The translations under genes were made by a program, and so were the position numbers. A stretch of DNA of 4,108 bases from a virus (taxonomy: Duplodnaviria > Heunggongvirae > Uroviricota > Caudoviricetes): IMG/VR virus record IMGVR_UViG_2585427761_000006; one strand, given 5' to 3'. Shown here piece by piece: positions 1 to 4,108 of this stretch. The notes below the pieces were generated by a model. The model had not been told where the DNA came from, did no database searches, and worked only from the letters and a program-made list of their open reading frames with translations. Numbering within the stretch: the first letter of the stretch is position 1; every line of letters starts with the position of its first letter.

Positions 1-2243
1 TCCTGCTTCTGCATCTCCGTCAGGGTTTTCAGTTCGCCCTGCGCAGTCTGGTATTTCAGCTTCGCCAGCTCTGTATTCTGCCCCGCCAGTGCCAGTTGCT
101 CTTTCTGCTGCTTCAGCAGCCGGGAAAAACTGTCTTCCGCTTTTTCCGTCTCTGATTTTCCACCCCGGGATTTGGGTTTATTCGCCTCGTTATTGCGCCA
201 GGCTTCCAGGGCATTACTGATATAACGTTGTCTCGCCTCCTGATACGGTTCACCCACAAAACCGAGGTCATCCGCCGCATACCCCAGTCGGACACGCTCT
301 TTTTCTTCCCCTTTCAGTCTGGACAGGGCCAGCTCACGCTCTGTTTTTGTCAGGGCACTCTGCTGTTTATCATCCAGAGTGGCCTGTGGCAGCCGTAACG
401 GCACATTCACCAGTCCCTGCCGCTGCTGAAGCAGTTCATTACCCAGCCCCAGCAGACGGTTGAATTCCGTATGCTGACCATTCATAACCAGCATGGACTG
501 GTACACCTTATTCTGCTCTGCCGCCTGCTGACGAATTAACGCCACACGACGGTCTTCCAGCCCGGCAAGCACATCCTGAATGGACTGCGCTTTTTCCTGC
601 ATCTGTGCCAGACGGGACTGCTCAACGGCAAGCTGCTCTGTTGCCTGAGCAAGCCCTTCCGTTACGGTCTTCACCGAGGTCAGATGGTTTATCATGAATC
701 CGTCACCGGTCGTCCAGCCCGGGTTCGCCAGAACATACTGATATCCTGCGATTTTTTCCTGCAGGGATTTCACCCGACTGGCCTGTTCATCAATCAGCCG
801 GTTCTGCTCTGTCAGCGCCGCCCGTGTTCGTCCTTCATTATCTGAGGCTTCAGGCAAAGACATTGACGGCGTTTTATGCGCGATTTCATCTATCGTCAGT
901 GCATACTGGCGCGCAGACTCCCTGGCCTGCTCCTGATTCTGGTACAGCGTGTACCATGCTGCAGCCCCCAGCATCACCAGTCCGGGTACGCCACCAACCA
1001 GCCCCAGCGCACCGCTCATCAGACGTGAGCCCACCGCCGTTGTACTGTTCAGCGCATTCTGGGCGGCGCTTCTGGCAGCAATATTTCTGTTCAGGCGTTC
1101 CTGTGTGGCCGCCAGACGGGCCTCTGCAGCAATCTGCATCTCCGTCCCGCGGGCTGCCGCCACGGCCTGCTGAGCACGGTACACGGCTGCCCTTGCCCGC
1201 GCCGTGGCAATCTGCGTTCCCCTGAACTGTGCTTCCGCCAGTGCAACTTCATTACGTGCAGCCGTCACAAGTCCTGCCGTGGCAGACATCGCTCCGGAGG
1301 CCATATTGCCAAAGTACCGGGCAACCCCGACGGCAACCAGCGCGCCCACGGCTGTTGCCACATTATCAATCTGTCCGGCAACACCGTTCAGCACGCCGGA
1401 GAGCGTTTTCGTCACCCCGCTGGCCTCATTCGCACCACCCACCCAGGCCATAAAGGCGTTTTCCACCTTTGTGATCCCGTCAGAGACCGTTTCCGGCATG
1501 GCCGCGTATTCATCACGCAATACCTCCAGCTGGCTGATTAACGCAGGAACGACTTTATCCGCCGTCAGTTTGCCGTCGTCCGCCATCGCCTTAAGGTCTT
1601 TACGGGCCACGCCCATACCCGCAGCCAGTGCACGTACGATCCGGTCTCCGCTTTCATTGACCGAATTAAATTCCTCACCGCGTAACACACCCTGTGCCAG
1701 CGCCTGGCTGAACTGGGTGATCACCGAGCCCGCCTCTGCCGTACTGGCACCGGAGATTTTCAGCCCCGTGGAAATGGCCTCCGTCACCTTCAGCACATCA
1801 TCAGCACTGTAACCATATTCACGCATTGAGGCTGCCGAGCGGGCAAACAGGGCCGCATTATCTGAAAATGCCGTGCCCGTCCGCTGGCTGATATCCATCA
1901 GCACTTTCTGTGATGACGAAAATTCATCGGATGACTGCGACGCCTGTTTCAGTCGGGCATTCACGGAACTCCATTCATCGGCCAGAGAAATCAGGTGTCC
2001 GGTGGCAAAGGCACCTGCAAATGCCCCCGCCGTTCCGGCAGCTGAAGCGCGGATTTCCGTCAACTGGCTGTTCAGCTCAGCCAGGGCGCGTCGCTGCTCC
2101 CGGGCGACTGCGGCAGCCTGACGCCCGCCATTCTGCAGGGTCCGGTAATATTCACTGCCCATACGGGAAGCCCGCTGGATCTCCGACTGGAATGACTGCG
2201 AATTTGCCGAAATTTTGATAATCAGTTCACGTAACGTCGCCAT
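1..2243 (-). CDS. Phage tail length tape measure protein (lambda gpH-like), N-terminal 747 codons; 3' end lies beyond window position 1
   Basis: ATG at 2243..2241 (minus) preceded by GGAG at 2255..2252 with an 8-nt spacer. Manual reverse-complement translation gives MATLRELIIKISANSQSFQSEIQRASRMGSEYYRTLQNGG... and stays open to the window edge. Frame confirmed independently at 1500..1559 (DKVVPALISQLEVLRDEYAA), 661..720 (NPGWTTGDGFMINHLTS) and 3..59 (KLKYQTAQGELKTLTEMQKQ). Ala/Gln/Glu-rich, coiled-coil-like composition with a hydrophobic Gly/Ala/Leu segment is typical of tape measure proteins. Position directly downstream of G/GT matches lambda gene order. Confidence 0.85.
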   Translation of the reverse strand, partial: MATLRELIIKISANSQSFQSEIQRASRMGSEYYRTLQNGGRQAAAVAREQRRALAELNSQLTEIRASAAGTAGAFAGAFATGHLISLADEWSSVNARLKQASQSSDEFSSSQKVLMDISQRTGTAFSDNAALFARSAASMREYGYSADDVLKVTEAISTGLKISGASTAEAGSVITQFSQALAQGVLRGEEFNSVNESGDRIVRALAAGMGVARKDLKAMADDGKLTADKVVPALISQLEVLRDEYAAMPETVSDGITKVENAFMAWVGGANEASGVTKTLSGVLNGVAGQIDNVATAVGALVAVGVARYFGNMASGAMSATAGLVTAARNEVALAEAQFRGTQIATARARAAVYRAQQAVAAARGTEMQIAAEARLAATQERLNRNIAARSAAQNALNSTTAVGSRLMSGALGLVGGVPGLVMLGAAAWYTLYQNQEQARESARQYALTIDEIAHKTPSMSLPEASDNEGRTRAALTEQNRLIDEQASRVKSLQEKIAGYQYVLANPGWTTGDGFMINHLTSVKTVTEGLAQATEQLAVEQSRLAQMQEKAQSIQDVLAGLEDRRVALIRQQAAEQNKVYQSMLVMNGQHTEFNRLLGLGNELLQQRQGLVNVPLRLPQATLDDKQQSALTKTERELALSRLKGEEKERVRLGYAADDLGFVGEPYQEARQRYISNALEAWRNNEANKPKSRGGKSETEKAEDSFSRLLKQQKEQLALAGQNTELAKLKYQTAQGELKTLTEMQKQ

Positions 2244-2251
2244 TCACCTTT

Positions 2252-2255
2252 CTCC
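2252..2255 (-). promoter_or_regulatory. Shine-Dalgarno (GGAG) for the tape measure gene
   Basis: Minus-strand GGAG 8 nt upstream of ATG 2243. The AAGGTG at 2250..2245 is only 1 nt from the ATG and probably too close to act as the SD. Confidence 0.5.
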
Positions 2256-2259
2256 GGGC

Positions 2260-2281
2260 AAAAAAAACCGCCACAGCGGTT
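2260..2281 (-). terminator. Intrinsic-terminator-like hairpin plus U-tract between GT stop and tape measure start (minus-strand sense)
   Basis: Minus strand reads AACCGC-tgtg-GCGGTT (6-bp stem, 4-nt loop; plus coordinates 2281..2266) followed by a T-run (plus-strand A8 at 2260..2267). It sits between the GT stop (2292..2290) and the SD of the tape measure gene. The stem is short, so termination is probably partial. Confidence 0.4.
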
Positions 2282-2289
2282 CTCATCAT

Positions 2290-2909
2290 TCATGACAGTG
2301 CTGCAAAGCTCAGCGCGTCTTCCAGCGCCGCAAACGGATCCACCTCCGGCTTATCCTCATCCTCGCCCCAGCAGAGCATGGCGCCCTTCAGTGCAACATT
2401 CATCCCCTGTGCCCCAAAAACCGCTTTCACGATCTGTGCATTACGGATATCCCCGCGCTCATCACCCAGCGGGGATACCCTGTCGAACTCCATCCACATC
2501 ATCGCCTCGCTCGCACTCAGGCTGTGCCGCAGTTCGGATAAGGTGCGCCCCAGACGGAGCGCAAGTCGCATCAGAAAGCGAATTTCCGGGCGGGCTACTT
2601 TTTTCTGGCCGACTCTGCATCAGCGATCAGTTCCAGTGCCTGACGCAGCAACCGGGCATGTACCGGACCATAGACGGCCAGCACCTGCTCACGGTCGTCC
2701 GGAGCGAACACCCGCTGCAGATCAGTATCACACAGGACATCGCAGAACAGCGTCACATCCGCTTCCAGGTTACGGCGGGTTTTCGCCACCACCGACAGGG
2801 TATCGTCATCCTCTCCATCACCATTGAGCACTTCCTGCCACAGATACCAGGCCTCTGCCGAAGGCTCCCGCAGCACCACGCTGACATTACCCCATTCCGG
2901 CACCTTCAC
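2290..2909 (-). CDS. Tail assembly chaperone GT fusion (lambda G-T-like), made by programmed -1 ribosomal frameshift at 2598..2604; about 206 aa
   Basis: The 0-frame G ORF ends ...ADAESARKK-TAG with the heptamer A AAA AAG immediately before the stop. The -1 frame from that point is open (KK-VARPEIRFLMRLALRLGRTLSELRHS...ALS) to TGA at 2292..2290. Frame arithmetic: G codon high positions are 2 mod 3, T-frame positions are 0 mod 3, which is a -1 shift on the minus-strand mRNA. A G/GT frameshift between the major tail and tape measure genes is a conserved feature of long-tailed phages. Confidence 0.75.
2595..2909 (-). CDS. Tail assembly chaperone G (lambda gpG-like), 104 aa, GTG start
   Basis: ORF (M)KVPEWGNVSVVLREPSAEAWYLWQEVL...ADAESARKK. 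The N-terminal motif EWGNVSVVLREPSAEA resembles, from memory, lambda gpG (..EHNGVTVTLSELSALQ..). Acidic, short, located between major tail and tape measure genes. The start is uncertain: there is no in-frame ATG, GTG at 2909 is the first start after the in-frame stop at 2993..2991, and the SD is weak. Confidence 0.7.
   Translation of the reverse strand: MKVPEWGNVSVVLREPSAEAWYLWQEVLNGDGEDDDTLSVVAKTRRNLEADVTLFCDVLCDTDLQRVFAPDDREQVLAVYGPVHARLLRQALELIADAESARKK
2598..2604 (-). promoter_or_regulatory. Programmed -1 frameshift slippery heptamer A AAA AAG (X XXY YYZ) at the 3' end of G
   Basis: Minus-strand sequence GCC AGA AAA AAG TAG. It is the same heptamer as the E. coli dnaX frameshift site, and the 0-frame stop lies directly 3' of it. 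The -1 frame continues into the T domain. Confidence 0.7.
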
Positions 2910-2974
2910 CGTTTTATGACGAAACCCCGACAGTCTGGCCAGCGCCAGCGTTTTCAGATCTTTTGCAATAAGCC

Positions 2975-3222
2975 TTATCCGCCCGCACCACTAACCGTCA
3001 CGGTACACGCAACAGACGTAACACTCTGCGCTGTTCTGCAGAATCCGTCACCACGCAGGTATAATCCCCCTTATCACCTGACTGCGTATTGGCTTTACTG
3101 AAAGTGTCAGTAGTCTGCCCCTCAACCGGCTGACCATCCTTCTTCCAGGCGTATTTATAAGGCGGCGTTCCCCCGTTAACACTGACTGACATTGTCAGCA
3201 GCGCACCGGTATTCACGGTAAG
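2975..3222 (-). other. Ig-like domain of the major tail protein; its final beta-strand (2975..3034) is encoded in the -1 frame
   Basis: In-frame part (3222..3031): LTVNTGALLTMSVSVNGGTPPYKYAWKKDGQPVEGQTTDTFSKANTQSGDKGDYTCVVTDSAEQ. The frame with codon highs at 1 mod 3 from 3034 reads TAQSVTSVACTVTVSGAGG then TAA at 2977..2975. This is the canonical Ig G-strand (S-V-T-S...A-x-L/V-T-V) expected right after the YxC strand. Confidence 0.6.
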
Positions 3223-3690
3223 TGTCTTATCCAGATTTTTCACAAACGCCAGCGGTACCACAAAGGACACCGGTTTACCCTTCAGACGAAGTGAAAACGT
3301 TGCAGCCACCACGCCGTTGGTACCGGATGACCAGGTGTGCTGACGCACTTCCGCCAGGAACTTAAAGCCCTTACCGGACGGAAACAGCACCTTAAACGCA
3401 TACAACGCGTCATTGTCATAGGCATCACGCAGGGCGTTCTGGGCCTGATTCAGATAAAAATTACCCGACATGGAAATCTCAGACGACGCCCCCAGACCGT
3501 TGATGTTCTCCTGCTCTGTGGAGCAGAGCGTGGTCACATCAATATCCTGTTTCTGACCGGCGGTGAACTGGACTTCCTTGATGGTGCAGTCCAGGCGCAG
3601 ATATTCCGCCTTATCCATGGTTTCAGCAGTCGCCGGGGCAGATGAAATCATCACCTGCGTCAGCTGTGAACGTTCATACAAAGCAGACAT
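2998..3690 (-). CDS. Major tail (tube) protein with C-terminal Ig-like domain (lambda gpV position), 230 aa as encoded
   Basis: ATG at 3690..3688 with AGGAGG at 3700..3695 (4-nt spacer). Protein MSALYERSQLTQVMISSAPATAETMDKAEY... The C-terminal part TPPYKYAWKKDGQPVEGQTTDTFSKANTQSGDKGDYTCVVTDSA is a recognisable Ig-like module (W...DG...DxGxYTC). Position upstream of G/GT/tape measure fits. The ORF-track version starts 21 codons earlier at a GTG (3753) that crosses the hairpin and SD, which I reject. The C-terminal 15 residues (EQRRVLRLLRVP) look frameshifted; see findings. Confidence 0.85.
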   Translation of the reverse strand: MSALYERSQLTQVMISSAPATAETMDKAEYLRLDCTIKEVQFTAGQKQDIDVTTLCSTEQENINGLGASSEISMSGNFYLNQAQNALRDAYDNDALYAFKVLFPSGKGFKFLAEVRQHTWSSGTNGVVAATFSLRLKGKPVSFVVPLAFVKNLDKTLTVNTGALLTMSVSVNGGTPPYKYAWKKDGQPVEGQTTDTFSKANTQSGDKGDYTCVVTDSAEQRRVLRLLRVP

Positions 3691-4091
3691 TCTGCCTCCT
3701 GATAATAAAAAACCCGCACGCGGCGGGGTATGGTTCTGTAGAAAAAAGTACACCGTGACCTGAAACTCCAGGGTTGCACGGTAACAGCGGTTTTCCGGAA
3801 TATAGTCTGCATTTCACTGACGGATCCCGGGGCCAGCAGCATTATGGCTTCACGGGCGTCCTGACGTATCTGACGCGCCTGCGTCACAGTCCCGGCATAA
3901 ACGTCTATCTGCACCGACACTGAGGACTCCGCCTGCCCGCCCATCACGTCCGCAGACACCGATGAAATCAGGCTGAAAACCACCCACGGAAGCGCCACCG
4001 ACGGCCTGCCATCCAGCAGGGGGACCACATACGGGTACACCTGCCCGCCGGCAAGATGCGCCAGATGAGGATACAAATCCGCCTCCGTCAT
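3660..4091 (-). CDS. Putative tail terminator / tail completion protein (lambda gpU position); 3' end uncertain
   Basis: ATG at 4091..4089 with an in-frame stop 12 nt upstream. Protein MTEADLYPHLAHLAGGQVYPYVVPLLDGRPSVALPWVVFSLISSVSADVMGGQAESSVSVQIDVYAGTVTQARQIRQDAREAIMLL... has a beta-rich small-protein character and sits immediately upstream of the major tail gene. The last ~34 codons (..SFRSRCTFFYRTIPRRVRVFYYQEAECLLCMNVHS) run through the hairpin/U-tract and SD and overlap the major tail gene by 31 nt, and look non-native. Confidence 0.55.
   Translation of the reverse strand: MTEADLYPHLAHLAGGQVYPYVVPLLDGRPSVALPWVVFSLISSVSADVMGGQAESSVSVQIDVYAGTVTQARQIRQDAREAIMLLAPGSVSEMQTIFRKTAVTVQPWSFRSRCTFFYRTIPRRVRVFYYQEAECLLCMNVHS
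3695..3700 (-). promoter_or_regulatory. Shine-Dalgarno (AGGAGG) for the major tail protein gene
   Basis: Minus strand AGGAGGcagaATG. Perfect SD complement, 4-nt spacer. Confidence 0.6.
3707..3727 (-). terminator. Intrinsic-terminator-like hairpin plus U-tract directly upstream of the major tail gene SD (minus-strand sense)
   Basis: Minus strand reads CCCGC-cgcgt-GCGGG (5-bp all-GC stem; plus coordinates 3727..3713) followed by TTTTTT (plus-strand A6 at 3707..3712), then ATTATC, AGGAGG and ATG. The plus-strand sense lacks a T-tract after the stem, so it is orientation-specific. Confidence 0.45.
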
Positions 4092-4108
4092 CGTCTCAGT
4101 ACCTCATC
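4089..4108 (-). CDS. 3' end of an upstream minus-strand gene (head-tail joining region); only the last ~6 codons are in the window
   Basis: Minus strand ...GAT GAG GTA CTG AGA CGA TGA, with the TGA overlapping the ATG of the next gene (ATGA), a classic translational-coupling arrangement. Too short to identify. Confidence 0.25.

Follow-up and report, generated by a model that had tools for sequence, protein, structure and literature searches.

An apparent overlap of gp17 with the major tail gene in a lambdoid prophage contig of Escherichia coli: a probable case of a lost G and a lost stop codon

The question raised by this locus is whether a phage tail gene genuinely extends into its downstream neighbor or whether the overlap is the mark of a broken gene. 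In the window, i.e., the entire stretch of 4,108 nucleotides analyzed here, an open reading frame on the minus strand (4091..3660) encodes 143 amino acids and ends with ...RSRCTFFYRTIPRRVRVFYYQEAECLLCMNVHS* at a TGA codon (3662..3660). The initial annotation had noted that this frame crosses a hairpin with a T-run as well as the AGGAGG motif of the following gene and that it overlaps the major tail gene by 31 nt (3690..3660), and these coordinates were confirmed. We conclude, with a probability of roughly 0.93, that the frame is an ordinary gene for a 114-aa gp17 protein from which one G and the stop codon are missing, and that the overlapping extension is not genuine.

The reading frame and its surroundings

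An exact-sequence look-up identified the window as the entire 4108-bp contig JOQE01000092.1 of assembly GCA_000713935.1 from E. coli 3_475_03_S3_C2. The strain (3-475-03_S3_C2) belongs to ST29, phylogroup B1 and serotype O71:H8, and its draft assembly of 203 contigs was built with MaSuRCA 2.3.2 from 100-bp HiSeq 2000 reads (PMC6222053). Table S1 of the same publication prints the BioSample as SRSS568243, and its Table S4 apparently lists no clonal sibling isolates of child 3_475_03. Megablast assigned the stretch to the tail module of Stx-type, Pankowvirus-like lambdoid prophages of E. coli, with phage 1717, BP-4795 and Stx2a_WGPS4 as examples. Of 5,426 complete E. coli genomes, about 1,245 contain it at identities of up to 98.9%, and relatives of the tail module are present in up to eight copies per genome.

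The list of open reading frames combined with Pfam scans yielded the order gp17, major tail subunit, G/GT chaperone and tape measure, all on the minus strand. The window ends 17 nt upstream of the gp17 start codon. In a second contig of the same assembly, JOQE01000087.1 (the sister contig), and in relatives, a gp10-like gene resides directly upstream, such that the frame lies between the HK97-gp10-like and the major tail genes. The depositors annotated it as 'hypothetical protein AC35_5486' (KEK74929.1). The relevant features are:

3660..4091, minus strand: gp17-family reading frame as deposited (KEK74929.1, 143 aa), read here as a frameshifted tail completion gene
3807..4091, minus strand: codons 1-95 of gp17 in the native frame (...GSVSEMQ), identical to WP_000133388.1
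3806..3807, minus strand: frameshift site from DNA alignment, one G of GG missing (CAGGAC to CAGAC; listed at about 3808 in the alignment tables)
3660..3806, minus strand: out-of-frame read-through, codons 96-143 plus the stop codon TGA (3662..3660), from translation and alignment
3748..3750, minus strand: position of the native stop codon in the alignment; relatives have TAA in allele A and TGA in allele B, the window has TAC
3691..3747, minus strand: native intergenic spacer between gp17 and the major tail gene, with the look of a hybrid of two natural alleles
3707..3727, minus strand: terminator-like hairpin CCCGC-cgcgt-GCGGG (stem-loop 3727..3713) followed by T6 (3712..3707), conserved in relatives
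3695..3700, minus strand: AGGAGG, Shine-Dalgarno sequence of the major tail gene, read from the sequence and conserved in relatives
2998..3690, minus strand: major tail subunit gene (ATG at 3690..3688) with a C-terminal Ig-like domain, 230 aa as deposited, 238 aa in relatives
2969..2595, minus strand: Phage_TAC_1 chaperone, from Pfam scan
to 2290, minus strand: Phage_tail_T frame, from Pfam scan
ATG at 2243, minus strand: tape measure gene, 5' 2.2 kb only, from the list of reading frames and Pfam

Lesions in gp17 relative to its native form

In the annotated relatives PA20, TW08637, C1-057 and Stx2a_WGPS4, gp17 comprises 345 nt and 114 codons for amino acids and is followed first by a spacer and then by the major tail gene. 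The native product is the tail completion protein gp17 (WP_000133388.1; Pfam PF11367, Tail_completion_gp17 / DUF3168). It ends with ...SEMQDYIPENRCYRATLEFQVTV* at a TAA or TGA codon, after which a spacer of 58-66 nt with the hairpin follows; read from the alignment, the native C-terminus is ...ATLEFQVTV*. The 114-aa form is encoded by 87 of the 95 loci fetched, forms a protein cluster with 746 members and is matched at full length in the IMG/VR loci fetched (n = 80). Homologues in Yersinia, Citrobacter, Erwinia, Pantoea, Kluyvera, Phytobacter and Martelella have 114-116 residues and keep the C-terminal Y-x7-RA-x-LE motif. Alignment with tail completion homologues, put forward in the initial annotation as a way of locating the true end of the protein, places it at residue 114, before the spacer.

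The window copy departs from this form at two sites. At 3807/3806, which lies 19 codons ahead of the native stop codon, one G is absent and the frame shifts after residue 95; at 3750..3748, the native stop codon reads TAC. When only the G was restored, gp17 and the major tail gene formed a single fused frame, while restoring the G together with a change from TAC to TAA returned exactly the 114-aa reference protein. Both of these outcomes accord with the earlier suspicion of an error further upstream, which can now be specified as the one missing G, and with the statement that no single indel within 3790..3690 would give the frame a tidy end, since the repair takes the upstream G plus the stop codon. 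The course of events that we propose is as follows: loss of the G would shift the frame after residue 95, the TAC codon would leave even the fused frame without a stop, and the shifted frame would then traverse the hairpin with its T-run and the Shine-Dalgarno sequence and, after a 31-nt overlap with the major tail gene, end at the TGA at 3662..3660.

That the frame runs on so far past the native end can be explained by the fact that neither alternative frame contains a stop codon until after the start codon of the major tail gene. The initial annotation had remarked on the openness of all three frames, and indeed none of the minus-strand frames holds a TAA, TAG or TGA from 3816 to 3676. This stop-free stretch of 140 nt is the second-longest of its kind within the window, and 121 of 4008 segments of 101 nt in the whole window are free of stop codons in all frames. 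Codons 96-143 are thus an out-of-frame reading of the gene end, the spacer, the Shine-Dalgarno sequence and the first ten codons of the major tail gene and do not represent native protein sequence.

This also bears on the proposal that a base substitution within the TGG of ...VTVQPW-SF abolished the stop codon. While TGG is a single step away from TGA or TAG, nothing further speaks for this idea. The stretch is out of frame; the native frame at this point reads ACC CTG GAG (T-L-E), and the native stop codon, TAA or TGA, lies 18 nt downstream in another frame at 3750..3748. The alignment refutes such an origin.

Profile searches point in the same direction. Residues 30-88 of the window frame match positions 28-87 of the 124 positions of PF11367 with 27.4 bits, above the Pfam gathering cut-off of 24.5, whereas the match covers positions 28-122 in the intact protein. 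The window frame lacks the C-terminal Y-x7-R-A-x-L-E that goes with a full-length match of about 114-116 residues and regains it only after restoration of the G and the stop codon. Since the conserved C-terminal strand region (Y-x7-RA-x-LE...) is lost, the gp17 product of the window copy is almost certainly non-functional.

The CAGAC junction had no exact-pattern match in IMG/VR, GTDB representative genomes or JGI metagenomes. The hybrid spacer with TAC had none in IMG/VR and is private to the window, and among about 15 billion proteins the 143-aa product forms a cluster with one member, on a single contig. Sequence comparison establishes that the lesions are private to this contig and that relatives have the native architecture described above.

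Intact gp17 genes are not universal among relatives. Phage 1717 (NC_011357) carries a 1-nt deletion early in gp17, at the equivalent of window position 4054, leaving a frame of 40 aa, and its gp17 is unannotated. Its major tail gene as annotated in this record (1791..2636 of the locus) starts 43 codons upstream, inside gp17, and has 846 nt versus 717 nt in PGAP records. The major tail gene of Stx2a_WGPS4 received the same long call.

Extended gp17 forms in the databases

The initial annotation had also considered a genuinely overlapping C-terminal extension and had named independent homologues of the same length and C-terminal sequence as the finding that would speak for it. A protein search did return such candidates (P0032-P0039 and P0063), which have 126-146 residues and share the last approximately 25 of them (...RRVRVFYYQEAECLLCMN[V/A]HS). 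The shared C-terminus stands, but conservation was not borne out, as the junctions differ: the out-of-frame part is entered after residues 88, 92, 95, 100, 106, 107 and so on. The common end can be explained by alternative frames that are open up to the TGA at 3662..3660 or the TGA at 3676..3674, and the differing junctions indicate independent breakages that converge on one stop codon instead of a conserved extension. Because both alternative frames lack stop codons across the junction, any late frameshift in gp17 gives a similar 'extended' protein, which can mimic conservation in protein databases.

The best-populated of the long forms, P0033, is the only one whose carriers were examined. 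It has 146 residues, and its cluster comprises 28 member sequences. All five carriers are single-contig long-read assemblies in which the neighboring gp10-like, major tail and tape measure genes are also fragmented. At these five loci (gp17 at 1501..1941), we observed a shared 1-nt deletion inside CCTGG (CCCTGGAG to CCCTGAG). CCTGG is a Dcm methylation motif, at which nanopore basecalling is known to err systematically, and the deletion resembles a systematic artefact of long reads at such a site.

Taken at face value, the open frames across the junction, which are found in relatives as well, and the several database proteins that end alike could speak for a C-terminal extension of gp17 over the major tail gene, be it conserved or produced by programmed recoding. 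However, each long form shifts at a different codon and the best-populated one comes from assemblies with broken genes. The shift in the window is a deletion in the DNA without a slippery site, and it removes positions 88-122 of the conserved domain, the Pfam match ending at residue 88. Known homologues have 114-116 residues, and the 114-aa form dominates throughout (the 746-member cluster, about 1,245 complete genomes and the 80 IMG/VR loci), while the 143-aa product stands alone. A genuine extension is therefore highly improbable.

Origin of the lesions and comparison with known systems

The spacer between gp17 and the major tail gene occurs in two natural alleles. Allele A reads GTG TAA TTTTTTCAACAGAACCCATA[A/C]CCC (in shorter form TAA TTTTTTCAACAGAACCC) and allele B reads GTG TGA CTTTTTC T6-7 CTACAAAACC[C]ATACCCC. 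In the window spacer, A-type and B-type characters alternate column by column over about 30 nt. Position 3740 is a T as in allele B, and the CC in place of CCC at 3733..3732 is a natural variant present in 15 of the fetched loci. The TAC in place of the stop codon is what column-wise mixing of TAA from allele A with TGAC from allele B would give. Derivation of the window spacer from allele B through one contiguous deletion was considered and proved impossible; at least two events are needed.

The hairpin within the spacer conforms to the terminator consensus of a G+C-rich stem-loop and a T-run in that it has an all-GC stem of 5 bp, a loop of 5 nt and T6. It is nearly invariant among relatives, with single-base variants in two loci. 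Note that it is the one terminator-like site in the region, which is no more than in shuffled sequences (mean 1.6), and that the z-score of its fold is -0.5. Another element of the terminator type, AACCGC-tgtg-GCGGTT with further T residues after it, is located at 2260..2281 on the minus strand, between the stop codon of T (2292..2290) and the tape measure start codon (2243). It was not listed by the consensus scan, and its flank is polymorphic in relatives, which show an ATGA indel of 4 nt at about 2284. Judged from sequence features, it is plausible that the hairpin and T-run may act as an attenuator or an RNA-stability element in the late operon. Two more far-reaching ideas appear unlikely to us: that the strain truly carries the lesions, with translation of the dead gp17 running across the hairpin and the ribosome-binding site of the major tail gene and altering the expression of the latter, and, separately, that both hairpins are functional intra-operon attenuators or RNA-stability elements setting the stoichiometry of the tail proteins.

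The sister contig encodes an intact gp17 of 114 aa. Its sequence agrees with the window at every position of 4108..3809 and 3727..2073, and the interval 3808..3728 between them holds six differences. All six thus sit within 81 nt, with zero in the remaining 1,955 nt of this segment of the overlap. In the tape measure gene, window and sister contig differ again, each with naturally occurring alleles.

Further anomalies are found in the adjacent genes. In the major tail gene, a 1-nt deletion near 3031 (CAGCCGCAG to CAGCGCAG), within 2998..3070 on the minus strand, exchanges the last approximately 19 residues of the Ig-like domain, resulting in 230 aa (...AEQRRVLRLLRVP) versus 238 aa (...PQSITSDACTVTVNGAGG) in relatives. 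The deletion is also present in the sister contig, and the 230-aa protein is known only from assembly GCA_000713935.1. The chaperone start codon (2967..2969, minus strand) is ATT in both contigs of the assembly versus ATG in relatives; in the gene table, the chaperone has 124 aa from ATT on the sister contig and 94 aa on the window contig, although the DNA is identical. The doubts raised at the outset about sequence quality across 2975..3800 were thus justified for both the major tail gene and the chaperone start.

The same region harbors a cluster of 16 differences (2967..3178) that is absent from all other sequences searched. Fourteen of 15 substitutions affect positions where the reference has A or C in the coding strand (p ~4e-4). 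The divergent Ig-domain allele was sought in other sequences and not found. Private changes in the window numbered about 40, with a bias toward A and C in the reference, when three references were used and 22 with seven references. Adenine mutagenesis of the DGR type was considered and rejected, given that the private set shrank to 22 and that 8 of the 14 coding changes in the cluster (3178..2967) are synonymous and that the cluster includes C and G changes. Aside from the A/C bias, the cluster looks like an unsampled natural allele as far as sequence can tell.

How, then, did the window copy of gp17 come to lack a G and a stop codon? One explanation, to which we give about even odds, is an error of assembly or consensus, in which several near-identical prophage copies, unlike in their spacer alleles, contributed reads to one small repeat contig, such that a hybrid spacer lacking a stop codon arose and a base was dropped. 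The window is a complete 4.1-kb contig of a short-read draft in 203 pieces, and the module occurs up to eight times per genome. Positions that differ from the sister contig form a tight cluster, and the spacer is a mosaic of A-type and B-type characters, including TAC in place of the TAA of A and the TGAC of B. The deletion and the hybrid spacer are each absent from all other sequences searched, and another two anomalies are located at a distance of 700 nt. However, mixing of known alleles does not account for the missing G, the rate of indel errors in Illumina data is low and a base is seldom dropped from a GG pair. Furthermore, the tape measure part differs from the sister contig by natural alleles, so that a distinct copy does exist.

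The distinct copy leads to the second explanation, a real pseudogene, whereby one decaying lambdoid prophage copy truly lacks the G and the stop codon in gp17. We consider this a serious candidate with a slightly less than even chance. Frameshifted structural genes are common in defective lambdoid prophages, as exemplified by the portal gene of PA20, annotated as 'frameshifted', the portal pseudogene of Stx2a_WGPS4 and gp17 of phage 1717 with its 1-nt deletion. The assembler kept the contig apart from its sister, which suggests that many reads carry the variants, and the frameshift in the major tail gene and the ATT start codon are common to both contigs, as inherited lesions would be. On the other hand, three changes within 75 nt are needed, two of them private, next to about 2 kb that are identical to the sister contig. 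The mosaic look of the spacer does not favor decay, and neither does the fact that the private lesions are found in no other genome.

Under either origin, the reading of the window frame as a damaged 114-aa gp17 gene stays the same. KEK74929.1 is a frameshift product, best handled either as a pseudogene or as an error in the sequence and not as a new long form of the tail completion protein. The gene family is already known, and the 143-aa frame does not add new biology.

The closest known counterpart is the system around WP_000133388.1, with which the window shares residues 1-95 of gp17 and the order HK97-gp10-like gene, gp17, major tail gene, G/GT chaperone and tape measure. It differs from it by the absence of one G (3807/3806) and of the stop codon, whereby 19 native residues are lost and 48 out-of-frame residues are gained. 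With the long forms P0032-P0039 and P0063, the window frame has the same out-of-frame end in common, while the frameshift junctions are different. A likeness to the programmed -1 frameshift of the lambda G/GT type exists insofar as a reading frame continues in another frame beyond the normal stop codon. In contrast to that system, gp17 possesses no slippery heptamer, its shift is encoded in the DNA, and neither the junction nor the extended frame is conserved in any relative. The window has an intact -1 site of its own in the chaperone gene, A_AAA_AAG at 2604..2598 on the minus strand, just before the TAG stop codon. Beyond it, the -1 frame leads on into the Phage_tail_T domain up to 2290, resulting in a G-T fusion.
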